Origin: Chlamydiota bacterium
Lineage (GTDB): Bacteria; Auribacterota; Tritonobacteria; UBA1439
Length of the DNA stretch: 44,159 bases
NCBI GenBank assembly: GCA_037133055.1
Contig: JBAXOY010000008.1
Span: 1-44,159 of the forward strand
Direction: 5' to 3'
Shown: in pieces, positions 11,898-26,076 of the stretch
Layout of the letters: each line of letters starts with the position of its first letter
Position numbering within the stretch: the first letter of the stretch is position 1
The notes under the pieces: generated by a model
Databases searched by the model: none
What the model was told of the DNA's origin: nothing
The model's input: the letters and a program-made list of their open reading frames with translations, nothing else
Made by a program: the position numbers and the translations under genes

Positions 11898-12320
11898 ATG
11901 TCAACGGACGAGGCGAGGGAGATCATCAGGGGGGCGGGCTACGGGATGCTGGCGACCGACGTCGACGGACAACCGCGGGTGCGCCCGATGGCGTTCGCGG
12001 TGACAGACGACTTAAGGCTGCTGAGCTCGACCTTCCGGCGGAGCGGAAAGGCGAAGGAACTGGCGGACAACGGGCGCGTCGAGGTCTGCTTCCTGGACGG
12101 GCGGAAATATCAACTGCGCGTCGAGGGTCTCGCGGATGTCTCCGGGGGGCCCGAGAAGAAGCGCGAACTCCTCGCCCTCAACCCGGGCGTGCGGAAGCAC
12201 TTCAAGGACGAGTTCGACCCCGAGTTCGTGCTCATCGAGATCGTCCCGACGCGCGCGCGCTGGATGCCGCCCGGGTTCGGGGAGTACCGCGAAGTCATCG
12301 CTCAGGGACACTCTCTATAG
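11898..12320 (+). CDS. Pyridoxamine 5'-phosphate oxidase family (FMN-binding split barrel) protein
   Basis: MLAT.VDGQPRVRPM, K...L..N.RVEVCF and QLRVEG motifs. Confidence 0.85.
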   Translation: MSTDEAREIIRGAGYGMLATDVDGQPRVRPMAFAVTDDLRLLSSTFRRSGKAKELADNGRVEVCFLDGRKYQLRVEGLADVSGGPEKKRELLALNPGVRKHFKDEFDPEFVLIEIVPTRARWMPPGFGEYREVIAQGHSL

Positions 12321-13241
12321 TGTCCCCGGAAGCTTCCGCATCCACGCGGCGACGCCATCCAGCGAGTTGAACTCCTCGATCGCGTGGGCCGTGCAGCCCG
12401 GCAGGAGCCGCTGCGCGATCTTCACCAGCGAGTTCCCGGACCCGATCTCGAGGAACGCCGCAGGCCCCATCTCCGCCATGGTCTGCATGCAGCCCGCCCA
12501 TTGCAGGGGACGGCTGAGGTGGAGCGCGAGCGTCCTCACCATCTCCTCTCTCCGGTAGATCACACGGTTCTCCACGCTCGAAACGACCGGCAGACCGGGA
12601 GCCCGAAGGCCGCTCCCGGCGAGCACCTTTTCGAACTCCGCGCTCGCGGCGGCCATGAGCGGCGTGTGGGACGGGATCCCCACGGGGAGCACGTGCACCC
12701 TGACACCTTCCTGCGCTCCCGCCCGGGCCACGAGCGTGTCCAGCGCATGGTGCTCCCCTCCGAGCACGAGGTGGTCGTCGCCGTTCACGATCGCGATGAA
12801 GGCCCCGGTCTCGGCGGCGATCCTTTTCATCTTCCTGAGCGGGATACCGGAAACCGCCACCATCCCGCAGTGGACGGTGACGGCCGCGTCCATCACCCGG
12901 GCGCGCGCGGCCGAGAGGGCGAGCAGCGTGTCGAAATCGCACGCCCCCGCGCACGCATAGGCGATTAACTCGCCCAGACTGTAACCGGCGAAGACGACGG
13001 GGGCGGGGGCGCGCGGGCGGAGCGATGCCCACACGGCGTAGCCGAGCGCGGCGAAGAGCGGCTGGGCGTTGCGGGGCGACAGCATCTCGCGGCCGATGAG
13101 CTCTCTGAGCTGATCGAGGCTGACGCCGAGGAATGAGCAGGCGCGCTCCACGTAGGGCGCAGCCGCGGCGTCCCGCAGGGCGAGATCGAACATGCCCGCG
13201 TGGTGCGTCCCCTGCCCCGGGAAGATCACCGCGATGCCCAT
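12315..13241 (-). CDS. mdcH: Malonate decarboxylase epsilon subunit, malonyl-CoA:ACP transacylase
   Basis: IFPGQG, GYSLGE (GxSxG), SHTPLM and FLEIG motifs. Last gene of the mdc cluster. Confidence 0.9.
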   Translation of the reverse strand: MGIAVIFPGQGTHHAGMFDLALRDAAAAPYVERACSFLGVSLDQLRELIGREMLSPRNAQPLFAALGYAVWASLRPRAPAPVVFAGYSLGELIAYACAGACDFDTLLALSAARARVMDAAVTVHCGMVAVSGIPLRKMKRIAAETGAFIAIVNGDDHLVLGGEHHALDTLVARAGAQEGVRVHVLPVGIPSHTPLMAAASAEFEKVLAGSGLRAPGLPVVSSVENRVIYRREEMVRTLALHLSRPLQWAGCMQTMAEMGPAAFLEIGSGNSLVKIAQRLLPGCTAHAIEEFNSLDGVAAWMRKLPGTL

Positions 13242-14104
13242 GCCGTCCTCCCCGCGATGAAATGTACGAATGCCGCGCACGCGAGCATGTCCCCCGCGCC
13301 CCCGGGGTTCAGGCCTCTTCCCACGAAGCGCGCGTGGATATCGGCGGCGCGGACCCGCCAGACCGGGGCGAATACCCCGCCCGCGGAGAGGAACCGGCGC
13401 GCGCATTCCCGCGCGAAGATGAGCCCCTCCCGCCCGCCGCGGTGGAGGAGATTGGTGTCGTCGAGGGCCGCGAGGACGGCGAAAAACGCCTGTGTCATGG
13501 CGCGGGTGAAATCGCAGCCCCGGCCGAGCGCATCCTCCAGCGCGGGCACCCCGGCGCGAAAAAGCGACGGAAACCCTCGGGCGGCCTCGCCGCACGCCCC
13601 GGTCGCCCCGAAGCGCGCCCGGGCCCGCGTCCCGTGGCTCCCGCACGGCGGCGTGTGCGCGGCGATCCCGTCCCCCCACGTCTCCAGGATGACATCCGGG
13701 AGCATGGGGGCGGTGATCCTCCTGCCGGTCGAGCCGATTCTCCCGGCCCCCGCCGCGAGCAGCCCGAGGCTGAAGATGGCCCCGCGGTGCGTGTTGACGC
13801 CGCCCGTCGCCCGGAGCATCGCCTCCTCGGCGTCGACGCCGATCCGCTGAAGGACTTCGAACGGCTCCCCGAGGTATCCGGCGCGGGCGAGCGAGGCGAA
13901 GTACGGTCTCAGCGCGAGGATGCTCCGGAGAAACAGGGCCGCGTCCATGTCCCGGTTGCTCCCGCGGTCGCGGAAGCTCACGAGCCCGGGCTTCGGGAAG
14001 CACGCGAGCTCGGCGAAGAGCGCGCGCGCCGCGAGGAGGCCGACGGTCTCCCCGGCGCAGGCGGCATCCGCGGGCGACGCCGCCCGGTCAGCGAGGCACT
14101 GCAT
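13226..14104 (-). CDS. mdcB: Triphosphoribosyl-dephospho-CoA synthase (CitG family)
   Basis: PKPGLV, TGGVNTHRGAIFSLG, DDTNLLHRGG and NPGGAGDMLA motifs. Confidence 0.93.
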   Translation of the reverse strand: MQCLADRAASPADAACAGETVGLLAARALFAELACFPKPGLVSFRDRGSNRDMDAALFLRSILALRPYFASLARAGYLGEPFEVLQRIGVDAEEAMLRATGGVNTHRGAIFSLGLLAAGAGRIGSTGRRITAPMLPDVILETWGDGIAAHTPPCGSHGTRARARFGATGACGEAARGFPSLFRAGVPALEDALGRGCDFTRAMTQAFFAVLAALDDTNLLHRGGREGLIFARECARRFLSAGGVFAPVWRVRAADIHARFVGRGLNPGGAGDMLACAAFVHFIAGRTAWASR

Positions 14105-14741
14105 CCGTGAGCTCCTCCCTCGACGCCATCCCGACCGAGCGTATCCCCTTCACGAGCACCTCCCGCCCCGACCCCGCATGGTACTCCCTCCAGGAAACCG
14201 CGGCGCCCCCCGAAAAAATGAACTCGCCATCGGCCCTGAGCCCGGTCCTGCGCTCCCACGCGAGGAGCGCCTTCCCGATCGCCCCGGTCGCGCATCGGCC
14301 GCGCGCGGGGATGCACAGGTCGATATCCGAATCGTCCCGCACGTACCGGCGCCGCGTGACGGTCTGCCACATGTGCGACCCGTAGACCCCGAAATCTTCG
14401 CTCCCCTCCACCATGCGGATGAGGTCCCCGAGCCCCCGCCTCCATATCCCGGACGCCCGCGACGCGACCTCCGCGAGCCCGGGCGGGGGTTCGATTCGCC
14501 GCACATCGCGGACTGCGACCCGGCATGCGACCGGACGCCCGCGCCCGCTCTCCCCGGAGGGGAGCAGCACCCCGAGGGCGAGTTCCCCCGGGGGCGCGCG
14601 CCCGTCGGAGCGGCAGACCACCGCGGGAAGCCCCGCGTCGAACCAGGCGGTGAGCGCCTCCGCGTCGCCGGGCTCCCCGCGGGGAAACGCGAGCCGCGCG
14701 CCCGGGCGGACCCACGCGCGGCAGTGTCGATCAGGCATCAT
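14088..14741 (-). CDS. mdcG: Malonate decarboxylase holo-ACP synthase (phosphoribosyl-dephospho-CoA transferase)
   Basis: GVYGS..WQ..T...Y....SDIDL, R.DGE, VSWRE and VLVK motifs plus operon position. Start is 14741 or 14738 (GTG 14756 possible). Confidence 0.88.
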   Translation of the reverse strand: MMPDRHCRAWVRPGARLAFPRGEPGDAEALTAWFDAGLPAVVCRSDGRAPPGELALGVLLPSGESGRGRPVACRVAVRDVRRIEPPPGLAEVASRASGIWRRGLGDLIRMVEGSEDFGVYGSHMWQTVTRRRYVRDDSDIDLCIPARGRCATGAIGKALLAWERRTGLRADGEFIFSGGAAVSWREYHAGSGREVLVKGIRSVGMASREELTDAVPR

Positions 14742-14752
14742 TGGTCCTCGCC

Positions 14753-15490
14753 TCACGTGGGATGGGCGGAGGGGATATGCCTCGTGGGGGTGTCGAGCCG
14801 GACCATGTCCGCCACGGAACGCGCGAGCGCCCGCCCCCCGCGCGCCTCGCCGAGCTCCCTCCGCCGATCCGTACGGTCCGCGACCGCGAGGGCCCGGACG
14901 AGCCTCTCCGCGAGCTCGTCCTCAGGCCACAGCTCGTCGATCCCGCCGAGCCGCTGAAAATTCTCGATGCCGGGCGCGAAGACCGGCGCGCTCCGGCTCA
15001 GCCGCTCGAGCCTCTCCTCGGGTATCTTCGTGATGACCGCCATCGCCGAGAGCTTCATCACGCGCACCTCCGCCGAAGAGAGCCCGTAGATCTGGTCGCC
15101 CATGAGGCCGAACGAGAGGAAGGCCCCGCTGATCGCCTCTCCGTACACGACGCTCACGAGGTGGTGCCCCCGCTGCCGCGCGAGGTGCAGGCACTCCAGC
15201 AGGTGGGCGAAATAGCCGTTGATCCCGAGCATCTCCGCCTCCCTGCTCAGGACCTGCCCCGCGCAGTCGACGAGCATCACGAGCGGCATGCCGGGCCGCG
15301 TGTCGATCGTGTCGAGGACGTGCGCGGAGAGGCGGAGCGACATCGGGATGTCGACCGCGGCGTGATCGGCGGTGCCGATCACGGACACGCCCGCGCCCCC
15401 GGCGGCCGCGCAGCCGGTGATGACGCCCCCCCCGACCGCGCAGCGATGCCCGCCCGGGAAGAGGCACGCCAGTGTCTCGTGTGCGTCCAT
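14753..15490 (-). CDS. mdcE: Biotin-independent malonate decarboxylase gamma subunit
   Basis: LVDCAGQ.LSR.AE.LGINGYFAHL, G.AISGAFLSFGL and PVFAPGIENF..LGG motifs. Confidence 0.9.
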   Translation of the reverse strand: MDAHETLACLFPGGHRCAVGGGVITGCAAAGGAGVSVIGTADHAAVDIPMSLRLSAHVLDTIDTRPGMPLVMLVDCAGQVLSREAEMLGINGYFAHLLECLHLARQRGHHLVSVVYGEAISGAFLSFGLMGDQIYGLSSAEVRVMKLSAMAVITKIPEERLERLSRSAPVFAPGIENFQRLGGIDELWPEDELAERLVRALAVADRTDRRRELGEARGGRALARSVADMVRLDTPTRHIPSAHPT

Positions 15491-15510
15491 CTCGTGCTCC
15501 GTTGTCCGTC

Positions 15511-16398
15511 TCACGCGCGCGGGAGGCGGAGGAACTCCTCCGTCTCCATCCCCTGGACCTCTTCCGGGCGCCCGATGCCCAGCGCGCGCCATATCTCCAC
15601 CGAGTCGCGGCACGCCCCGAAACGCCCGTGCCTCGCGGCAAGGGCGCGGTGTTCGCCCCGGAGCGATTCGAGCGTGAGCGGGCGGGGCTCGTTCATGAGC
15701 GACAGCGCCGCGCGCCGGAACCCGGCGATCGAGTCCTCGACGAACCGGTCGGCCTCGCCAATGAGATACCGGTGCTTGCCGCCGTAGGTCCGCCAGATCA
15801 TCGCCCGGTCGCTCGCGTCGAATTCCTCGACGCCCATCACGTTCTGGATCACCTTCGGCCCCGACATCCCCATCCGCCCGTGCTCGTTCATGATCACGTG
15901 GTCGCAGCAGCGGGCGAGGACGCCCATGCCGCCGAACGCCCCCTCCTTCCCCCCGACGAGGGCAAGGCAGGCGATCCCCGCCGCCCGCAGATCGAGGAGC
16001 GCGCGGATCATCTCCGAGATCGCGATCAGGCCCGCGTTCGCCTCGTGGAGCCGGACCCCGCCGCTGTCGATGAGGAGGAGCACCGCGGCCGGCTTCTTCT
16101 CCCGCGCCCGCTCCAGGAGGCCGGTGACCTTCGCCCCGTGGACTTCGCCCACCGCCCCGCCGATGAACCCGCCCTGCTGGGCTGCGCAGTAAACGCCCTT
16201 CCCGCCGAGCGCCCCCTCACCCACAACGACCCCGTCGTCGAACTCGACCGGGACGTCCAGCGCGACCAGGTTCGGGTTGATGATCCCCCGCCTCGGGTCG
16301 AGGAACTCCGTGAACGAGTCCCTGTCGAGGAGATGCCGCAGGAGCTTCCGCGCGTCGGACTGCGGGTAGAGCGGCGGCCTCATCCACTTATTCCTCAT
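15511..16398 (-). CDS. mdcD: Biotin-independent malonate decarboxylase beta subunit
   Basis: FDDGVVVG, GGAVGEVHGAK, DSGGVRLHEANAGL, GAFGGMG, SGPKVI and GGKHRYL motifs. Confidence 0.93.
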   Translation of the reverse strand: MRNKWMRPPLYPQSDARKLLRHLLDRDSFTEFLDPRRGIINPNLVALDVPVEFDDGVVVGEGALGGKGVYCAAQQGGFIGGAVGEVHGAKVTGLLERAREKKPAAVLLLIDSGGVRLHEANAGLIAISEMIRALLDLRAAGIACLALVGGKEGAFGGMGVLARCCDHVIMNEHGRMGMSGPKVIQNVMGVEEFDASDRAMIWRTYGGKHRYLIGEADRFVEDSIAGFRRAALSLMNEPRPLTLESLRGEHRALAARHGRFGACRDSVEIWRALGIGRPEEVQGMETEEFLRLPRA

Positions 16399-16714
16399 CG
16401 GGTTCCTCCGCGAGCTCCTCGACCGCCTGGTGCAGGCGCAGGGTCACGACCGCCGGCACCGCTCCGGCGTCGTGTATCGAGATCCTGAAGCCGGAGAGAT
16501 CGTACTCCTCCGCGAAGCGGGCGAGCGCGGCCTTCCAGGTCTCGGCGAAGCCGGGGCGGTTGGTGTCGACCTCCACCGCGCACCCCGCGCCTCCCTCGCC
16601 GCGCTCGATGAGCACCTCGAGGTTCCCCGAGGCGACCACGCCGACGAGGGCGTAGGGGGCGGAGCCGCGCACGAGGCGTCCATCGGATTCGAAGGTGAAA
16701 CTCAGATGTTCCAT
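16388..16714 (-). CDS. mdcC: Malonate decarboxylase acyl carrier protein (delta subunit)
   Basis: GVVASGNLEVL (prosthetic-group Ser) and I.IHDAGAVPAVVTLRL.QA motifs. Confidence 0.93.
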   Translation of the reverse strand: MEHLSFTFESDGRLVRGSAPYALVGVVASGNLEVLIERGEGGAGCAVEVDTNRPGFAETWKAALARFAEEYDLSGFRISIHDAGAVPAVVTLRLHQAVEELAEEPDEE

Positions 16715-16744
16715 CTCTCTCCTACCGTCGCGCAACCCGCGCGC

Positions 16745-16834
16745 CTCTTCCCGCCCTTCCCACCCTTCACACCTTTCACACCCTTCACACCCTTCTCACC
16801 CTTCACACCCTTCAAACCCTTCACACCTTTTCCT
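16745..16834. repeat. 9-bp tandem repeat (consensus CCCTTCACA, TGTGAAGGG on the coding strand), about 10 imperfect copies
   Basis: Units ctcttcccg cccttccca cccttcaca cctttcaca cccttcaca cccttctca cccttcaca cccttcaaa cccttcaca ccttttcct fill the mdcA-mdcC intergenic space. Confidence 0.95.
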
Positions 16835-16836
16835 TA

Positions 16837-18483
16837 CTACCACCGCACGAACTGCGCGGGCGGCTTGTACAAGCCCTTTGACCATTCGACGATCTCCTTG
16901 ATCGACCGGGCGGCGAGGAGATCGGTGCTCGCGTCGCGCCAGCGTATCCCGAGGTCGTCGGGGCGTTTGACGACGCCGCGGTCCCGCAGGTTGTCCACCG
17001 CGGCGGGGGAGCGCCGCATCCCGACCGGCGTGAACCCCGCCACCCCGCGTATCGCCTCGCGCCGTTCCTTGGCGTCCCTGCAGAGCAGCAGGTTGGCGAT
17101 CCCCTCCTCGGTGACGATGTGCGTCACGTCGTCCCCGTAGACCATGATCGGCGGGATCTCCTGCCCCATGTCCCGCTGGAGCCGCACCGCGTCGAGCTCC
17201 TCGACGAAGGTGGGCTTCCCACCCTCCTGGAACGTCTCCACCAGCTGGACGACAAGCTTTCTCCCGCGCGCGGCGCGGCGGCCCCGGGCGGGGGCTCCGT
17301 CCCGCCCGGCCCTGATCCATGCGGGGCTCGCGTGCCGCCTGCCGCGGGCATCGCAGCCGAGGTTCGGCGCGCCGCCGAACCCGGCGATGCGGCCGATGGT
17401 GGCGGTCGAGCTGTCCCCCCTGAGGTCGATCTGGAGCGTCGCCCCGATGAACATGTCGAGGCCGTAGTGCCCGGCGAGGTGCGCCAGGCAGCGGTTCGAG
17501 CGCATCGCCCCGTCGTGCCCGGTGAAAAAGACATCCGGCCGCGCCCGGATGTACTCCTCCATCCCGATCTCCGAGCCCGGGCAGTAGACGGACTTCACGA
17601 AACCGCTTTCGATCGCCGGGATGAGGGTCGGGTGGGGGTTGAGCATCCAGTGCCCGCAGATCCTCCCTTTCAGGCCGAGCGCCTCGGCGTACGTCGGGAG
17701 CAGGAGCTCGATCGCGGCGGTGTTGTACCCGATCCCGTGGTTCAGGTACTGCACGCCGTACTCCGCGTAGATCCCCTTGATGACCATCATCCCCATCAGG
17801 ACCTTCACCTCGTTCAGATCGGCCGGGTCACGCGTGAAGAGCGGCGTGATGGAGTACGGCTTGGGGCTCCGGACGACGAAGTCGACCCAGTCGCCCGGGA
17901 TGTCGACGCGGGGAAGCCGCTCGACGATCTCGTTCACCTGCGCGATCAAAAGTCCGTTCCGGAACGCCGTCGCCTCCGCGATGACCGCCGTGTCCTCGGT
18001 GTTGAAGCCGGTGAAGAGGTTCCCCTCGGCGTCCGCGGCGTCGGCGCAGATGAGGCTCACGTGGGGAGTCAGGTCGGTGAAGTAGCGGGCGTAAAGCTCG
18101 GGATAGGTGTGGATCGCGCCGATCGCGATCTTCCTGTTGGCGACAAGGCTCGCGAGGCGCGCCGCCACCCGGGCCGAGTAGCAGAAGTCGAGACGCTCGG
18201 CGATCCCCTTCTCGAAGAGGGAGATGTGCTCGGGAAGAGAAACTGATGACATGACCATGTGAAGGCCGGAGACCCGGCCCGGGTCGCAGCCGGCGAGCGC
18301 CGCGGCGAGGAAGTCGGCCTGCTTCTGGTTGTTCCCCTCGATGCAGACCCGGTCGCCCTTCTCGATGACCGCCTCGAGCATCTCGACCGCACGGGCAGGG
18401 TCGAAGGCCTTGGAGGCCGTGACGCGCCCGGCGCGTTCGAGGCGGCGCCGTTTTCTCTCTTTAAGGGTATCCCACTGGGGCAT
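16837..18483 (-). CDS. mdcA: Malonate decarboxylase alpha subunit (acetyl-S-ACP:malonate ACP transferase)
   Basis: GDRVCIEGNNQKQADFL, AIHTY.ELY.RYF.DL.P, LNHGIGYNTAAIELLLPTY, LNPHPTLIPAIESG, GFGGAPN, MVYGDDVTHIVTEEGIA and WS.GLY.PPA.F motifs. Confidence 0.97.
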   Translation of the reverse strand: MPQWDTLKERKRRRLERAGRVTASKAFDPARAVEMLEAVIEKGDRVCIEGNNQKQADFLAAALAGCDPGRVSGLHMVMSSVSLPEHISLFEKGIAERLDFCYSARVAARLASLVANRKIAIGAIHTYPELYARYFTDLTPHVSLICADAADAEGNLFTGFNTEDTAVIAEATAFRNGLLIAQVNEIVERLPRVDIPGDWVDFVVRSPKPYSITPLFTRDPADLNEVKVLMGMMVIKGIYAEYGVQYLNHGIGYNTAAIELLLPTYAEALGLKGRICGHWMLNPHPTLIPAIESGFVKSVYCPGSEIGMEEYIRARPDVFFTGHDGAMRSNRCLAHLAGHYGLDMFIGATLQIDLRGDSSTATIGRIAGFGGAPNLGCDARGRRHASPAWIRAGRDGAPARGRRAARGRKLVVQLVETFQEGGKPTFVEELDAVRLQRDMGQEIPPIMVYGDDVTHIVTEEGIANLLLCRDAKERREAIRGVAGFTPVGMRRSPAAVDNLRDRGVVKRPDDLGIRWRDASTDLLAARSIKEIVEWSKGLYKPPAQFVRW

Positions 18484-18625
18484 GGGGGTTTTCTCCGAAG
18501 GCACTATTCTAACACGGGGAGCCCGGCGGTTGAAAGGAACTCGGACTTTGGAACGGGGCATTTCGCGCGCTTGCCTCGCGTCCGCCGAAGTGCTAGCCTA
18601 TCGGCATGCGGGGGGATGTAGGACG

Positions 18626-18841
18626 GTGATAGAGCGGAAGAAAGACCTGATCAAGTGCCCCGGCGGGTCCTACCTTATCGAGAGGGAGATCTGCGGGGCG
18701 AGGAAGGCGGACGGGTTCGCCCACTGCGCCCGCTGCCCGGAGAACACCGACCAGCTCGAGATGTTCGAGACCCCCCTCCAGGTGGCCGCGAGGAAGAAGC
18801 GGGGCAGAAGGCGGCGCCACGTCAGGCGCGGCGGGATCTGA
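18626..18841 (+). CDS. Small Cys-rich basic hypothetical protein (putative zinc binder)
   Basis: 71 aa from a GTG preceded by AGGA, with C-x11-C-x10-CxxC, QLEMF and an Arg/Lys-rich tail. It fills the gap between divergent mdcA and the convergent radical SAM gene with host-like codon usage. Confidence 0.6.
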   Translation: MIERKKDLIKCPGGSYLIEREICGARKADGFAHCARCPENTDQLEMFETPLQVAARKKRGRRRRHVRRGGI

Positions 18842-18899
18842 AATCCCCCCCGGCGCACATTCCACGCGGAGAACTCGTTGCCTATTGCGTCCGGCAAGG

Positions 18900-20513
18900 T
18901 CAGCTCAGGCGCATGAACGCCCGGTGCCGGTACTTCAAGCGCAGGGACACCAGCCTGAGGATCGCGAAGAGCCACACGTAGTTCGACGGCCTGAAGTAGA
19001 GGTCGATGAACCGCACGACGCGGCAGATCAGGTGCAGCGTCCGCAGGCGCCCGAAGAACATTTCCCTCCGCTCCATCCGCCTGATGAGCGCGTTCGGGAA
19101 GATCTTGAACTGCGCGAGGGAGAAGAGCAGGTAGTAGTACTCGTGCAACCTGAGGGAGCCGCTGTACTCCCTTCTCTTGTCGAACGACGTGATCCAGTCG
19201 CTCCCCGACGTGGTGACGTTCCCCTCGAGGTCGTCCTCGGTGATGAATCCCTTTTCGAGATACACTTTGGTCAGGAGGTAGTTCGGGAAGAACGAGAGGT
19301 TGAACGCCTGGAAGATGAAGTTCTTCGGCAGGTCGAGGATCAGGTCAAGGCTCTCCCGCAGGTCCTCCTTCTTCTCCATGACGTTGTTCTTCACGTAGTC
19401 ATAGTAGATCCTGAACACGGTGTGCAGGCTCTTCACCGACCGCAGGGCGTCGAGCCTGCGGGCTGCCGTGATCACCTGCGCGTTCGTCTCGCGCCGGTTG
19501 TACAGATGCCTCCGTATTGCATAGCTCCCACTCTGAATCCCCATCACCGTGACGCTCCATCCGGCCTTCCTGAGGGCGACGAGCGTTTCCTGCTCCACGA
19601 ACAAAGGGTGCGAATAGGCGAAGAACGGGATGCGCACCCGCTTGGAATACTGCTCGGCGAACTCAAGGCACCATTCCTTGTTGACCTGGAAGATGTTGTC
19701 CCAGAAAAAGATCATCTTCAGCCCTGGGTTGTTCCGCTTCGCCTCCTCAAGCTCCCTGATCACGTGCTCGACGCTCCGCCGCCTGAACCGCTCGTGGGTC
19801 AGCGCATTCACGCAGAACGAACAGTTCATCAGGCAGCCGAACGACGTCATCGTCTGGTGGATGGTCTTACGCGGATTGTCCGTGAACCCGTACCCGAAGT
19901 AGTCGATGTTCCTGTCCGGCTGCAGCCGCCCGTCGTCGATGTAGGTCTTGTCCTCGGCGTCGCAGCTCGCGACCGGGAGGACGTTGAGGTCGGCGATGAG
20001 CTGCCGCGACTCGTTTCTCGTGATGCTCCCTCCCTCGTTCACCCAGATGTTGGGGATGTCCCGGTACGGCTTCCCGGCCGCAATCCGCGCCGAGAGCTCC
20101 TGAAGCGGCTCGAACCCCTCCCCGACGCAGAGGATGTCCGTTTCCAAAATGCAGCGCTCGGGATCGATCGTCGGGTGCGCGCCGCCCCAGATTATCGGCA
20201 CGGCAAGCTCTTTCTTGATCGCCTGCGTGATGCGCTGCGCGACCGGGAAGTGCGAGGACTGGACCCCGATGCCGATCAGCGAGGGGCCGAGCCTCTTCAG
20301 CTCGGCGAGAAGGGTGTCGATATCCTCCTGAGTGGCCTCGGTGTGGTAGTCGTACATCTCCATGAAGTCGTTCTTCAGGGTCCGGGTCGCCTTGTGCCGC
20401 ATCCGCTTGAACCCGATGAAGGAGACGGGTATGCCGTGCGCCTTCAGGTAGGAGAAAAGGCTCCTCAGGGCGAAGTTCTCGTAGTGAAACAGGGCGATCA
20501 ATACCACTCTCAT
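18900..20513 (-). CDS. B12-binding domain radical SAM protein
   Basis: N-terminal cobalamin-binding region (IIWGGAHPT, VGEG), GCLMNCSFC (CxxxCxxC), RRSVEHVI.EL and MGIQSGS. Confidence 0.92.
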   Translation of the reverse strand: MRVVLIALFHYENFALRSLFSYLKAHGIPVSFIGFKRMRHKATRTLKNDFMEMYDYHTEATQEDIDTLLAELKRLGPSLIGIGVQSSHFPVAQRITQAIKKELAVPIIWGGAHPTIDPERCILETDILCVGEGFEPLQELSARIAAGKPYRDIPNIWVNEGGSITRNESRQLIADLNVLPVASCDAEDKTYIDDGRLQPDRNIDYFGYGFTDNPRKTIHQTMTSFGCLMNCSFCVNALTHERFRRRSVEHVIRELEEAKRNNPGLKMIFFWDNIFQVNKEWCLEFAEQYSKRVRIPFFAYSHPLFVEQETLVALRKAGWSVTVMGIQSGSYAIRRHLYNRRETNAQVITAARRLDALRSVKSLHTVFRIYYDYVKNNVMEKKEDLRESLDLILDLPKNFIFQAFNLSFFPNYLLTKVYLEKGFITEDDLEGNVTTSGSDWITSFDKRREYSGSLRLHEYYYLLFSLAQFKIFPNALIRRMERREMFFGRLRTLHLICRVVRFIDLYFRPSNYVWLFAILRLVSLRLKYRHRAFMRLS

Positions 20514-20686
20514 ATTCTTCGGACATGCCCCCGGGCATAAAAAAGCCGTGAGTCGAACTCCCGTTCACGGCTCATACACACCTCATCGATGTATACCGAA
20601 TACATCATCCCCTCGGGCAGAACATGCCTCCCGCCAGGTTCACAGTATAGCATCCCCGTCCGCCGGACGCCAGTTTTCGAGGATTC

Positions 20687-21502
20687 TCAGGAAGGATCCC
20701 GTATCGCCACGATCATCCGCGCCGCGTCCCGCAAGGGGCCGGGCTCGTGCGTGCGGATGTAGCCCGCGCCGTGGAGCCAGGCCCAGATCTCCGTCGCGAG
20801 CGTCCCCGCCCCCCGTTCCCCGACCGGCCGGTTCAGCACCGCCCCGATGAACGACTTCCGGGACGTGGAGACGCACAGGGGGCATCCGAAACGCCGGAGC
20901 GACTCTAATTCCCGGAGCACCATCAGGCTCGGACCGGGGGTGCCGCCCAGGAAGAAACCCATCCCGGGGTCGATGATGATGCGGTCATGGGCGATACCGG
21001 CGGACTCGAGCGACGCGAGCCGCTCCGAAAAATAAGCCTCTATCTCCGCCATGACGGTCTCTTCGCTTCGCGAGGCCCTCTCCGCACGGGGGCCCCGGTT
21101 CCGGGCGAACATCACCACGACCGGCACCCCGGCCCCGCGCACCGCTTCAACGGCCTCCGCGTCCCTGAGGCCCGTCACGTCGTTGATCATATCCGCGCCG
21201 AGTGCAAGCGCGCGCCGCATCACCACGGGTTTGCGCGTGTCGACGGAGACCCGTACCCGCTCCTTCTTCAGTCCCAGGATGACGGGCTCGATGCGCGCAA
21301 GCTCCTCCGCGGCGTCCACGCGCGCGCCGTCGGGGTTGCTCGACTCCCCCCCCACCTCGACGATGTCCGCGCCCTCCGCGGCGAGCCCGAGCCCCTTTTG
21401 GACCGCCGCGCGCGGGTCGAGGTACCGCCCGCCGTCGGAGAAGGAATCCGCGGTGACATTGAGGATGCCGATGATCGCCGGCGCGCGCGGTTCACTTTTC
21501 AT
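20687..21502 (-). CDS. folP: Dihydropteroate synthase, Sul-like (FolP*) variant
   Basis: GILNVT.DSFSDGG, SVDT, INDV, DPGMGFFLG, SRKSFIG and IRTHEP motifs. Confidence 0.95.
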   Translation of the reverse strand: MKSEPRAPAIIGILNVTADSFSDGGRYLDPRAAVQKGLGLAAEGADIVEVGGESSNPDGARVDAAEELARIEPVILGLKKERVRVSVDTRKPVVMRRALALGADMINDVTGLRDAEAVEAVRGAGVPVVVMFARNRGPRAERASRSEETVMAEIEAYFSERLASLESAGIAHDRIIIDPGMGFFLGGTPGPSLMVLRELESLRRFGCPLCVSTSRKSFIGAVLNRPVGERGAGTLATEIWAWLHGAGYIRTHEPGPLRDAARMIVAIRDPS

Positions 21503-21619: not shown

Positions 21620-21677
21620 TTGCAAACAAAATCAGGAGTTGGTACATTCACTACAATAACTATTATATTAGTAGTGA
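21620..21677 (+). promoter_or_regulatory. Sigma70-type promoter and probable Rrf2 operator for the sulfur operon
   Basis: TTGCAA (21620-25), 17 bp, TACATT (21643-48), then the AT-rich inverted repeat TCACTAC-N16-GTAGTGA (21648-77), overlapped by ACTA-ttatat-TAGT. Confidence 0.65.
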
Positions 21678-21691
21678 TTGATGGGGTAAAC

Positions 21692-23456
<1,765 letters not shown>

Positions 23457-23494
23457 ACTGCGGCGTCACGACAGCCGCGAGAAAGGGATATACC

Positions 23495-24418
23495 ATGGGC
23501 AGGATATTCGACGATATCACGAAGACGGTGGGCAGGACGCCGCTGGTGAGGATCAACCGGATCTCGAAAGGGACGGGCGCGGTGGTGCTGGCGAAACTCG
23601 AATCGTTCAACCCGCTCGGGAGCGTGAAGGACCGGATCGGCGTCGCCATGATCGATGCCGCGGAGAAGCAGGGGCTCATCCGGAAGGGCTCGGTCATCGT
23701 CGAGCCGACGAGCGGCAACACGGGGATCGCCCTGGCCTTCGTCTGCGCGGCGCGGGGCTACCGTCTCATCCTCACCATGCCCGACACGATGAGCGTCGAG
23801 CGCCGGCAGCTCCTGAAGATACTGGGCGCGGAGGTGGTGCTGACGGAGGGGGCAAAGGGGATGAAGGGGGCGGTGGCGAAGGCGGAGGAGATCCACACCG
23901 CCACGCCGGGCAGCTTCATGCCGCAGCAGTTCGAAAACCCCGCCAACCCCGAGATACACCGGCGGACCACCGCCGAGGAGATCTGGGCGGACACGGACGG
24001 CGGCGTGGACATCTTCGTCGCGGCGACCGGAACGGGGGGGACCATCACGGGGGTGGGAGGAGTGCTGAAGGCGCGGAAGCCGGGGGTGAAGGTGATCGCG
24101 CTCGAGCCCGCGGACTCGCCCGTGCTGTCGGGGGGCGCGCCCGGCCCGCACAAGATACAGGGCTGGGGGCCGGGGTTCGTGCCCGGCGTGCTCGACCGCG
24201 CCGTGATCGACGAGATAGTGCGCGTCGGCCACGTCGATGCGGGGGCGATGGCCCGCAGGCTCGCCCTCGAGGAGGGGATCCTGACCGGAATCTCTGGCGG
24301 CGGGGCGATGTGGGGGGCGATCGAGGTTGCGAAACGGCCGGAATCGGCCGGGAAGACGATCGTCACGGTCCTCCCCGACACGGGGGAGCGCTACCTCTCC
24401 ACCTGGCTTTTCCAGTGA
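23495..24418 (+). CDS. cysK: Cysteine synthase A
   Basis: [52 protein letters not shown] and [10 protein letters not shown] motifs. Confidence 0.97.
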
Positions 24419-24473: not shown

Positions 24474-24737
24474 ATGAAAGACGCCACAGTCACCGTCAAC
24501 AATCCCCACGGCCTGCACATGAGGGTCGCAGCCGAGGTCGTCAGGAGGTGCAGGGGGTTCCAATCCGCGATCACGCTCTGCAAGGACTGCAAGCGGGCGG
24601 ACGGCTGCTCGATCATCCAGCTCGTCATGCTGGGGGCGGCAAAGGGCTCCGAGCTGAAGATCATCGCCGCGGGGGGGGACGAGTCCGCCGCCGTACGGGA
24701 GCTCTCGTCCTTCTTCAGCGAGGGCGGAGGCATCTAG
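24474..24737 (+). CDS. HPr family phosphocarrier-like protein with C-terminal GGGI tail
   Basis: VNNPHGLHMR (His15 site), DGCSII.L.MLGA.KG (Ser46 site) and A.G.DE..AV motifs. GGAG precedes ATG24474. Confidence 0.88.
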   Translation: MKDATVTVNNPHGLHMRVAAEVVRRCRGFQSAITLCKDCKRADGCSIIQLVMLGAAKGSELKIIAAGGDESAAVRELSSFFSEGGGI

Positions 24738-24741
24738 GCGT

Positions 24742-24936
24742 ATGACAACAAAAGAATCGCTGCGCGCCCACGGCACTCCCGATCCGGCGCTCCGCATCGT
24801 CGGCAACGCGGTGCAAAGCCTTCAGTTCGGGACCGTGACGATCAAGGTCCACGACACCAGGATCGTGCAGATCGAGGTGACGGAAAAGATACGTTTCGGC
24901 GAAAGACGGGACTACGAGAAGGGAGGTGGCATCTAA
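24742..24936 (+). CDS. YezD-like small protein (DUF2292) with C-terminal GGGI tail
   Basis: SLQFGTVTIKVHDTRIVQIEVTEKIRF matches the DUF2292 pattern (L.FG.V.I.VH...V.QIE..EK.R). Sulfur operon context. Confidence 0.85.
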   Translation: MTTKESLRAHGTPDPALRIVGNAVQSLQFGTVTIKVHDTRIVQIEVTEKIRFGERRDYEKGGGI

Positions 24937-24960: not shown

Positions 24961-25029
24961 CGTGCACCGGACAACCGGGCACGAGATTCACGCGCACACC
25001 CATCGCCGATGCGACCGGTCAACCGGAGG
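24961..25029 (+). promoter_or_regulatory. Pair of related CCGG-N4-CCGG hairpins between yezD and the DUF3034-like gene
   Basis: CGTGC-A-CCGG-acaa-CCGG-GCACG (24961-83) and GACCGG-tcaa-CCGGAGG (25013-29). Confidence 0.45.
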
Positions 25030-25056
25030 ATCTGGCAAAACGTGAGGGTCATTCCG

Positions 25057-26076
25057 ATGAAAATGATCGCATCAATTATCGCCGTCGCGCTGGTCTTCTC
25101 GACCGCAGGCGCGCCGGCGCAGACCGACGCGAAAGCCGAAGCCGTTGTCGCGCCGTCCGGCGACACGGCTGCAGGTACCGCGGAATACCCGCCCGCGCAG
25201 GGCGCCGAAGAGACCCTGTCCAAGCCCCAGAAGGCCCCGCCGCTCCCGTTCCACACGATCGAGGGATACGGCGGAGGCTCGATCACGCCAATGGCATACC
25301 TCGTGAACCCGGGTGCGGAGGGGACGATCTTCGGCCTCCCGGCCGCCGCATACTCGCAGGTGTTCTTGCCCAACGGGGGGAAGGACCTCGATGCGTGGAC
25401 GTTCACGGAGACGCTGTTCAGGAGACTCGAGCTCGGATACGGTTTCAACCGCCTGGGCCTCGGGACCTTGCCGCACGACATCGCCGAGGCCACGGACATC
25501 GGCATCCGGCGCAACCATGTCCTCCTGCACAACTTCAACGCGCGGGCGCTCCTCCTGGAGGAGAACTCGTTCAAACTCCCCCTCCCGGCGCTCACCTTCG
25601 GGACGCACTTCAAGTACAACGACGGCATCCAGGCCATCGATCACCGGCTCGGAGGGGCGCTCAAATCCATCGGCCTCGACAAGTCGAACGGCGTGGATTA
25701 CACCCTGACTGCCACCAAGACGTTCATGATCCCGAAGATCAATCGGCCGCTCATCGTCACCGCGGGCATGCGCGGGAGCCAGGCGGCGCAGGTGGGGCTC
25801 CTCGGCTTCTCCGATAAATTCACCCCCTCGTTCGAGGGGAACGTCGCGTTCCTCCCGACCGACTGGCTGTTGCTCGCCTACGAGATCCGACAGAAGAAAA
25901 GCCCCTACGGTCAGATCCCCGGGCTGATCGGCGAGGAGGATTCGTGGAACGCGATCGACGCAAGCTGGATCATCAACAGCCACATGACGCTGGTCGCCGG
26001 ATGGGGGTCATTCGGGAACGTGACGAACACGAGGGAAAACGGGGCCTGGTGGCTCCAGTTCAAATACGAGATATGA
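25057..26076 (+). CDS. DUF3034-like exported protein, probable outer-membrane beta-barrel
   Basis: Signal peptide, IEGYGGGSITPMAYL motif, alternating amphipathic strands, YEIRQK and an aromatic C-terminal strand (WWLQFKYEI). Confidence 0.7.
   Translation: MKMIASIIAVALVFSTAGAPAQTDAKAEAVVAPSGDTAAGTAEYPPAQGAEETLSKPQKAPPLPFHTIEGYGGGSITPMAYLVNPGAEGTIFGLPAAAYSQVFLPNGGKDLDAWTFTETLFRRLELGYGFNRLGLGTLPHDIAEATDIGIRRNHVLLHNFNARALLLEENSFKLPLPALTFGTHFKYNDGIQAIDHRLGGALKSIGLDKSNGVDYTLTATKTFMIPKINRPLIVTAGMRGSQAAQVGLLGFSDKFTPSFEGNVAFLPTDWLLLAYEIRQKKSPYGQIPGLIGEEDSWNAIDASWIINSHMTLVAGWGSFGNVTNTRENGAWWLQFKYEI

Follow-up and report, generated by a model that had tools for sequence, protein, structure and literature searches.

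What does an HPr protein do among genes for cysteine and homocysteine synthesis? The locus that raises this question lies on contig JBAXOY010000008.1 of assembly GCA_037133055.1, from a Chlamydiota bacterium that GTDB places in the Auribacterota, and the window is the whole stretch analysed, positions 1 to 44,159 of its forward strand. HPr is the textbook relay of carbon status in the phosphotransferase system (PTS), and the cysteine synthase CysK is a standard example of a moonlighting enzyme, one that senses sulfur status by way of tails inserted into its active site. The gene at 24474-24737 encodes an HPr paralog that adjoins cysK and ends in G-x-G-I, a pattern resembling known CysK-docking tails. 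By analogy with those tails, the favoured reading, to which we give about an even chance, is that the protein is a phosphorylatable HPr paralog that would dock into CysK.

The second HPr and its C-terminal end

The gene carries the following features.
24474-24737 (including stop), + strand: HPr paralog, 87 amino acids (open reading frame (ORF) translation, Pfam, NCBIfam)
24516-24518, + strand: His15 codon
24522-24524, + strand: Arg17 codon
24549-24551, + strand: Cys26 codon
24579-24581, + strand: Cys36 codon
24588-24590, + strand: Cys39 codon
24606-24608, + strand: Cys45 codon
24609-24611, + strand: Ser46 codon
24723-24734, + strand: codons of the C-terminal tail G84-G85-G86-I87, the proposed CysK-docking element

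Pfam PTS-HPr (PF00381) matches residues 4-82 of the protein with 84.9 bits (cut-off 23), and NCBIfam TIGR01003 gives 73 bits against a cut-off of 47.9. The NCBIfam equivalog models for HPr, NPr, FPr, and DhaM all score under their own cut-offs. The ATG is preceded by a Shine-Dalgarno-like AGGGAG, 8 nucleotides (nt) 5′ of it. The phosphosite motif reads G13-L-H15-M-R17-V18, in which Met and Val replace the canonical Ala and Pro, while the Ser46 site reads D43-G-C45-S46-I. There are four cysteines (C26, C36, C39, and C45), among them the motif C36-K-D-C39. An AlphaFold2 model built on a 55-row alignment has a mean predicted local distance difference test (pLDDT) score of 94.5 and the beta-alpha-beta-beta-alpha-beta-alpha order of HPr, with strands at residues 2-7, 31-37, 40-43, and 60-67 and helices at 16-27, 47-52, and 70-82. 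The ESM Atlas returns generic HPr clusters only (scores 0.88-0.89). DNA contigs of the public runs X2, which shares its study with the possible source, and X3, from another study, cover the gene without differences. In the RNA runs X20 and X21, no contig falls on the gene; the contigs obtained match just conserved stretches of metY and cysK and, at 90-95% likeness, probably come from other organisms.

The genome, which is 92% complete, holds two HPr-family matches. The other is encoded on contig C37 in a canonical hprK-ptsH-ptsI operon and is 39% identical to the window protein, which is a paralog and not the sole HPr of its genome. Matches to enzyme I (EI) and HPr kinase (HprK) are absent from the window contig C8; HprK and an EI-type protein are found on C37 only, with a further match to the phosphoenolpyruvate (PEP)-utilizer family on C90. 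A Pfam scan of 31 window ORFs found no other PTS domain, and no genome-wide search for EIIA was made. Canonical HPr and EI are also present in 4 of the 5 other carrier genomes examined, and HprK occurs in the window genome and in 1 of these 5. The initial annotation of the window, made from its letters alone, had listed the His15 and Ser46 sites, the four cysteines, the CKDC motif, and the GGGI end, all of which are present. It had also noted no EI or HPr kinase gene nearby, in agreement with the contigs on which these matches lie, and its view of the protein as a paralog holds, with the sole-HPr alternative ruled out by the copy on C37.

The same annotation had called the GGGI end an added tail. 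The end is real, and the addition is not: the canonical HPr of the genome ends in SKFGED and is about equal in length when aligned, so GGGI replaces the acidic C-terminus and does not extend it. In the AlphaFold2 model, the E-G-G-G-I tail begins after helix 3 (residues 70-82), and residues 81-87 have a mean pLDDT of 74. Six-frame translation of the genome gives 17,601 ORFs with 50 amino acids or more, of which five end in G-x-G-I and only two in GGGI: the HPr paralog and its downstream YezD-like neighbour. The GGGI ending of the paralog exceeds chance.

This ending recurs in a large set of relatives. A HMMER scan of a representative library yielded 3,514 proteins at an E-value of 0.001 or better, and 51 of the best 150 representatives end in G-x-G-I, most of them 87-88 amino acids long. 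The paralog ends in G-x-G-I in all 13 genome loci compared (13/13), and I87 is kept in all close relatives; among 841 ORFs of at least 40 amino acids in those loci, the only other G-x-G-I end belongs to one YezD homolog. In an alignment of 55 tail-bearing proteins from several phyla, G84, G86, and I87 are invariant by selection, and mean column identity outside the tail is 36%. H15 and S46 are present in 55 of 55 and R17 in 53 of 55, with G13, H15, S46, L53, and G67 as the invariant positions besides the tail.

A profile search of a 90%-clustered protein collection returned 901 clusters at an E-value of 1e-12 or better. G-x-G-I ends 104 of the 106 new top matches (60 GAGI, 24 GGGI, 10 GSGI, 4 GEGI, 4 GLGI, and 2 GDGI), a count that shows the size of the family and not independence, since the search profile includes the tail. 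The source names of the matches include Aureabacteria, Nitrospirae, Deltaproteobacteria, Omnitrophota, and Elusimicrobia, and the proteins are always annotated as "HPr family phosphocarrier protein". When the last six residues were trimmed before tree building, the tail label still needed no more than 16 changes on the tree; shuffled labels needed 43.5, and none of 500 shuffles reached so low a count. The approximately unbiased (AU) test is compatible with a single clade of tail-bearers (p 0.074). Judged from these alignments, the hallmark of the subfamily is the C-terminal G-x-G-I and not the cysteines.

Sulfur genes around the paralog

The paralog is the fourth gene of a same-strand cluster in the order Rrf2-metY-cysK-HPr-yezD-DUF3034, which comprises the following features.
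21639-21666, + strand: promoter-like site upstream of the Rrf2 gene, overlapped by the inverted repeat
21645-21680: inverted repeat with 10-nt arms and a 16-nt spacer, 90% complementary (repeat search); candidate operator of the operon
21693-22132, + strand: Rrf2-family regulator, CymR-like (Pfam Rrf2, 128.8 bits)
22152-23456, + strand: MetY, O-acetylhomoserine sulfhydrylase / homocysteine synthase (Pfam Cys_Met_Meta_PP, 440 bits; TIGR01326, 662.9 bits, over its cut-off)
23453-24418, + strand: CysK, cysteine synthase A (TIGR01139 cysK equivalog, 451.9 bits; cut-off 350.95)
24742-24936, + strand: DUF2292/YezD-like small protein ending in E-K-G-G-G-I (Pfam DUF2292, 53.4 bits)
25009-26076, + strand: DUF3034 protein with a signal-peptide-like N-terminus, last gene of the cluster (Pfam DUF3034, 87.6 bits)

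No terminator-like site was found on the + strand between 22152 and 26076. The longest ORF of the Rrf2 gene begins at 21620, and the GTG at 21693 is its likely start. The NCBIfam CymR model scores 109 bits on this regulator, under its cut-off of 195, with an alignment that reaches the last residue. Alignment with orthologs places the likely start of CysK at the ATG at 23495. Its SVKDR lysine, TSGNTG loop, and GTGGT motif are invariant across 7 orthologs, and the cysM models fall under their cut-offs, which identifies the neighbour of the paralog as CysK and not CysM. The YezD-like gene begins 4 nt past the stop codon of the paralog; the NCBIfam OscA model gives its product a weak 38.7 bits, under the cut-off of 85. 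A word-based homolog search with this protein matched only itself, and literature searches on DUF2292/YezD and OscA gave nothing useful by title or abstract.

Linkage to sulfur genes extends well beyond the window. A scan of one genome per species gave 13 loci from Auribacterota, Fibrobacterota, Nitrospirae, and Polyangia, a set biased toward Cys45-bearing members because the search pattern (ADGCSI..., A3) includes Cys45. The flanks of these loci contain cysK in 6 of 13, metY in 5 of 13, and one or both in 8 of 13. In one locus, the upstream side is cut off, and a thioredoxin and a rhodanese-fused disulfide reductase lie downstream. The cysK gene directly adjoins the paralog in the window, L012, L013, L031, L033, L036, and L038. 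Within the phylum of the window, 3 other genomes of 40 carry the paralog; its loci L012 and L013 are arranged metY-cysK-HPr, and L014 has the order CBS-domain fragment, cystathionine-type pyridoxal phosphate (PLP) enzyme, HPr, Thi4, then another ORF.

Members of the subfamily without cysteines show the same linkage. The Cys-less paralog of a Chitinispirillaceae genome lies directly downstream of a MetY-type gene, and a Cys-free paralog on the metagenome contig L126 lies in the order cysW-cysA-HPr-rrf2-cysH. This contig was the one true relative among 10 loci from a metagenome search with A6, which represents a Cys-free clade. Two genomes carry several HPr-family members: the Chitinispirillaceae genome G079 (L102, L104) has two tail-bearing paralogs, one Cys-rich and one Cys-less, each by a MetY-type gene, and the Fibrobacteraceae genome G081 (L100, L105) has five HPr-family matches, some with other ends.

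Control loci lack this linkage. Within 1.5 kb, cysK or metY occurs at 0 of 17 canonical HPr loci of the same phylum and at 0 of 29 other loci from Myxococcota, sets of which the tblastn HPr query re-found 8 of the 17 and, in Myxococcota, 22 of 30. The 17 canonical ORFs of the phylum all end in KF-x-E-x, mostly KFGE-x, and the ends in Myxococcota are varied. A tail-bearing HPr was found in 1 of 301 sampled Myxococcota genomes. The paralog thus belongs to sulfur amino-acid operons in several phyla, which extends the membership that the initial annotation had proposed from one operon.

Other observations concern the surroundings of the paralog. In the Fibrobacter loci L039-L041, it is divergent beside a CoaD-CoaE fusion (phosphopantetheine adenylyltransferase and dephospho-CoA kinase); coenzyme A (CoA) synthesis consumes cysteine, so this neighbourhood may still be sulfur-related. 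A DUF3034 homolog, 71% identical, is also present at the related locus L031. The DUF3034 protein of the window ends in F-K-Y-E-I, and if it is exported, this Ile end is probably unrelated to CysK. The genes upstream of the operon (12315-21502) are unrelated and include malonate decarboxylase subunits alpha (16837-18561) and delta/ACP (16388-16735), an acyltransferase, a B12-binding radical SAM protein (18900-20513), and a dihydropteroate-synthase-like pterin-binding protein (20687-21502).

Putative docking into CysK and the alternatives

Tails that enter CysK are known from several proteins. Passages of PMC9547175 describe the C-terminal Ile of CysE as a highly conserved, essential anchor that enters the CysK active site and that contributes 80% of the CysK interaction energy in H. 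influenzae. A conserved C-terminal Ile is usual in CysK partners, according to the part of PMC4961446 available. The GYGI tail of CdiA-CT(EC536) is needed for its co-purification with CysK, as excerpted from PMC11724271, and GDGI is the conserved CysE tetrapeptide of three species in the accessible text of bioRxiv 10.1101/2025.03.26.645513. In S. aureus, excerpts of bioRxiv 10.1101/2024.09.19.614015 place C-terminal peptides of CysE and CymR inside the active site of CysK, where the carboxylate of the Ile binds as the substrate does, and report that the CymR tail ends in F-Y-I.

The G-x-G-I tail resembles these docking tails, which makes a link between the HPr paralog and CysK plausible. The initial annotation had proposed that the protein couples PTS state to CysK; that link gains plausibility from the tail, whose likely role as the connector the annotation did not mention, nor did it mention the GGGI tail of the YezD-like gene that follows or the related Y-x-I tail of the Rrf2 regulator.

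Similar tails occur on other proteins of these genomes. The CysE candidate of a Polyangia genome ends in NGGGI, and the HPr paralog of the same genome ends in DGGGI. The best CysE candidate lacks the terminal Ile in 10 of 11 carrier genomes, among them a Nitrospirae metagenome-assembled genome (MAG) whose CysE is fused to cysteinyl-tRNA synthetase (CysS). The candidate of the window genome (contig C155, L006:983-2014, - strand) is EpsC-type and ends in KKSGK without a C-terminal Ile. This suggests that the CysK docking site is otherwise free of a CysE tail in most carriers. A correlation between CysE tail loss and presence of the paralog was considered and dropped: in the phylum, 5 of 5 genomes without the paralog likewise have a CysE with no terminal Ile, so the loss is a lineage trait and not a correlate of the paralog.

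The GGGI tail of the YezD-like protein is a 6-residue extension found in 4 of 12 DUF2292 ORFs (retrieved by a motif pattern from the 14 loci of the phylum), all four in the bacterial family of the window, and it makes this protein a second candidate for docking into CysK. The Rrf2 regulator of the window ends in MYQI, and those of related loci end in NYAI, DYVI, DYTI, DFTI, and NYDI. Rrf2 ends in the window and five related loci thus consist of an aromatic residue, any residue, and Ile, and resemble the end of S. aureus CymR.

Further Ile ends were noted in relatives. On L126, the sulfate-pump ATPase CysA (805-1863) ends in Y-E-Y-E-I and Rrf2 (2207-2635) in N-Y-D-I; tblastn found no CysA ortholog in the window genome, where the best match is 36% identical. 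A full PALP+CBS fusion near the paralog in L032 (9270-10643), which is cystathionine-beta-synthase-like, ends in G-S-T-E-I, and the CBS-domain C-terminal fragment at the edge of L014 (49-231) ends in D-S-D-G-I.

In the docking mechanism proposed for the HPr paralog, its flexible G-x-G-I tail would insert into the active-site cleft of the co-encoded CysK with the carboxylate of the terminal Ile as anchor, and the paralog would serve as a signalling module tethered to CysK. Since docking tails of this kind and O-acetylserine are competitors for the active site, occupancy of CysK would report sulfur status. Phosphorylation of His15 by EI from PEP, possibly also phosphorylation by HprK, would report carbon and energy status. 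In HPr structures, the C-terminus lies near the His15/Arg17 site, so docking and phosphorylation would be mutually sensitive, and we infer that tail binding and phosphorylation of the paralog would influence each other. The Y-x-I tail of the CymR-like Rrf2 regulator and the GGGI tail of the YezD-like protein would compete with the paralog for the CysK site, and with several co-encoded tails competing for one site, CysK would be a hub.

A broader and more tentative form of this idea makes CysK a hub whose cleft is contested by at least three co-encoded tails (CymR-like, YezD/OscA-like, and HPr paralog), joined in relatives by CysA with its Y-E-I end. The paralog might then be the first direct wire between the PTS phosphorelay, with its PEP/pyruvate carbon signal, and sulfur assimilation, with phosphorylation of His15 gating tail insertion, and C36-x-x-C39 and C45 might add a redox or sulfide input in the Cys-bearing subclade. 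We regard this full picture as possible and rather doubtful.

Several observations weigh against docking into CysK. The tail sticks out just about 5 residues past helix 3 in the AlphaFold2 model. No sulfur gene lies within about 6 kb in 4 of the 13 loci (L037, L039-L041), and the paralog is linked to metY no less strongly than to cysK: L042, L043, and L102 have only a MetY-type gene adjoining the paralog, and metY separates cysK from it in L032 and L035. The paralog is dispensable, being carried by only 3 of the 8 genomes from the bacterial family of the window, and two genomes of the same genus have metY-cysK without it. HprK was not detected in 4 of the 5 other carrier genomes, and one 1.8-Mb Nitrospirae MAG has no detectable EI or second HPr, so phosphorylation may not be universal among these paralogs. 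The loss of the CysE tail in paralog-free genomes belongs here as well. The tree, with its 83 columns, is poorly resolved: 5 of 137 branches are starred, and these require the tail label to change at least 4 times. A prediction of the complex of CysK (7 rows), the HPr paralog (55 rows), and PLP gave no answer, scoring 0.00 twice without controls, and is evidence neither way.

The tail may instead dock into another partner, most likely MetY and possibly a different sulfur-assimilation protein such as a CBS-type PLP enzyme, and thereby regulate homocysteine synthesis or the whole pathway. The paralog directly adjoins a MetY-type gene in L032, L035, L042, L043, and L102; L014 places a cystathionine-type PLP enzyme and a CBS-domain fragment beside the paralog; and L126 has cysA, rrf2, and cysH and no cysK on its 4-kb contig. 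Against this, the gene directly beside the paralog is cysK in the window and in the six other loci named above, and the GDGI, GYGI, and NGGGI tails are features of CysE and CdiA-CT aimed at CysK. The available passages of the cited papers describe docking of a C-terminal Ile for CysK only. We also know of no report of Ile-tail docking into MetY-type (fold-type I) enzymes, and we consider this alternative unlikely.

We give a similarly low probability to an ordinary, NPr-like regulatory HPr paralog that resides in sulfur operons, acts by phosphotransfer or contacts of the His15 face, and uses G-x-G-I as a structural or stability feature. The retention of His15, Arg17, and Ser46 and the presence of EI in most carrier genomes fit such a protein, and the regulatory HPr paralogs NPr and Crh exist, with structures solved. 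It accounts poorly for the Gly-preceded terminal Ile, which is invariant across phyla despite the low mean column identity elsewhere and which recurs on the unrelated YezD-like neighbour and on a CysE candidate, whereas all 17 canonical HPr ORFs of the phylum end in KF-x-E-x.

More speculatively, and in line with the redox, metal, or persulfide sensitivity suggested by the initial annotation, the cysteines may be the functional core. C36-x-x-C39 and C45, next to Ser46, would then act as a redox switch, bind a metal or an Fe-S cluster, or relay persulfide, and so sense or carry sulfur. This role, which we judge to be less probable still, is compatible with tail docking. C36, C39, and C45 are retained in close relatives and in 12 of 12 sequences of alignment A3, which span several lineages and were selected for the motif. 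A C-x-x-C...C-S/T motif is commoner in tail-bearers, with 20 of 51, than in the other representatives, with 8 of 99, and several of those 8 look C-terminally frameshifted or truncated; it also occurs in 74 of 104 further tail-bearing profile matches. Against a cysteine core, 13 of the 55 aligned tail-bearers and 14 of the 104 further matches have no cysteine, yet the paralog is found in sulfur clusters in its Cys-free form too. Per position, the 55 sequences contain C36 in 20, C39 in 27, C45 in 30, and C26 in 17, with C36, C39, and C45 together in 13. C26 is variable, being K or S in relatives that are 62-67% identical. The strand order predicts that C36 and C39 sit at one end of the beta2-beta3 hairpin and C45 at the other, which makes a single three-Cys site doubtful.

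As far as these sequences indicate, the C36/C39/C45 triad is a subclade feature. The initial annotation had taken cysteine richness as the defining trait, which fails on the Cys-less members, where the tail defines the subfamily instead. Of the conservation at issue there, that of the tail stands, that of C36, C39, and C45 stands within the subclade, and that of C26 does not.

A protein-thiocarboxylate route to homocysteine through MetY operates in Wolinella. A small protein ending in GG-X beside MetY and CysK could suggest a sulfur carrier like HcyS or CysO, whose Ile would be clipped and whose Gly-Gly would be adenylated and thiocarboxylated to donate sulfide to MetY or CysK, but we regard this as highly improbable given the predicted HPr fold (AlphaFold2) in place of a beta-grasp, the lack of a strict Gly-Gly (of 55 sequences, 19 have Gly at position 85 and the other 36 have Ala, Ser, Glu, or Thr), and the absence of genes of the E1-like or JAMM type from the 31 window ORFs that were scanned.

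Comparison with known systems

The paralog shares with canonical HPr (PtsH) its domain, fold, and length, the G-x-H15-x-R17 motif, and S46, and it scores over the PF00381 and TIGR01003 cut-offs. It differs in being a second copy that is found away from ptsI and hprK, in sulfur-assimilation operons. The paralogs have H-M/L/A-R-V and G-x-G-I where canonical HPr has H-A-R-P and KFGE-E/D.

NPr (PtsO) and Crh are likewise small HPr-fold paralogs, and these two serve regulation rather than sugar uptake. The NPr model NF008146 scores 39.4 bits on the window protein, below its cut-off of 119. In Crh, His15 is replaced, and the protein has no PEP-dependent phosphorylation, whereas the paralog keeps His15. 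To our knowledge, neither NPr nor Crh has an Ile tail or a link to sulfur genes. The paralog is a member of the HPr family that is neither NPr nor Crh.

If the docking reading is true, an HPr with a CysK tail would physically link carbon and sulfur control, a connection previously undescribed. A search for HPr as a CysK partner found no relevant open full-text paper, judged partly by title or the start of the abstract and with subscription-only literature outside its range. The subfamily is large (901 clusters) and occurs in little-studied lineages, including Auribacterota, Omnitrophota, Elusimicrobia, Nitrospirae, Fibrobacterota, and Myxococcota. By analogy with the known tails, the CysK-docking-type tail appears to behave as a portable module, grafted on unrelated small proteins of one operon. 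The pairing of a small protein with a well-behaved enzyme makes the idea directly testable.

Compared with the tails of CysE, CymR, and CdiA-CT, the paralog has the same terminal Ile after a short flexible segment, its G-x-G-I matches the GDGI/GYGI pattern, and its gene lies beside a cysK equivalog. The carrier domain here is an HPr, and its docking is putative. The combination of an HPr paralog with a putative CysK-docking tail suggests that carbon signalling and sulfur assimilation are connected in a way not yet described. A further counterpart is the CymR-CysK system of Bacillus and Staphylococcus: the Rrf2 regulator of the operon is CymR-like and ends in Y-Q-I, as S. aureus CymR ends in F-Y-I. 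In that system one regulator acts on CysK, whereas here two further small proteins, the HPr paralog and the YezD-like protein, carry putative docking tails.

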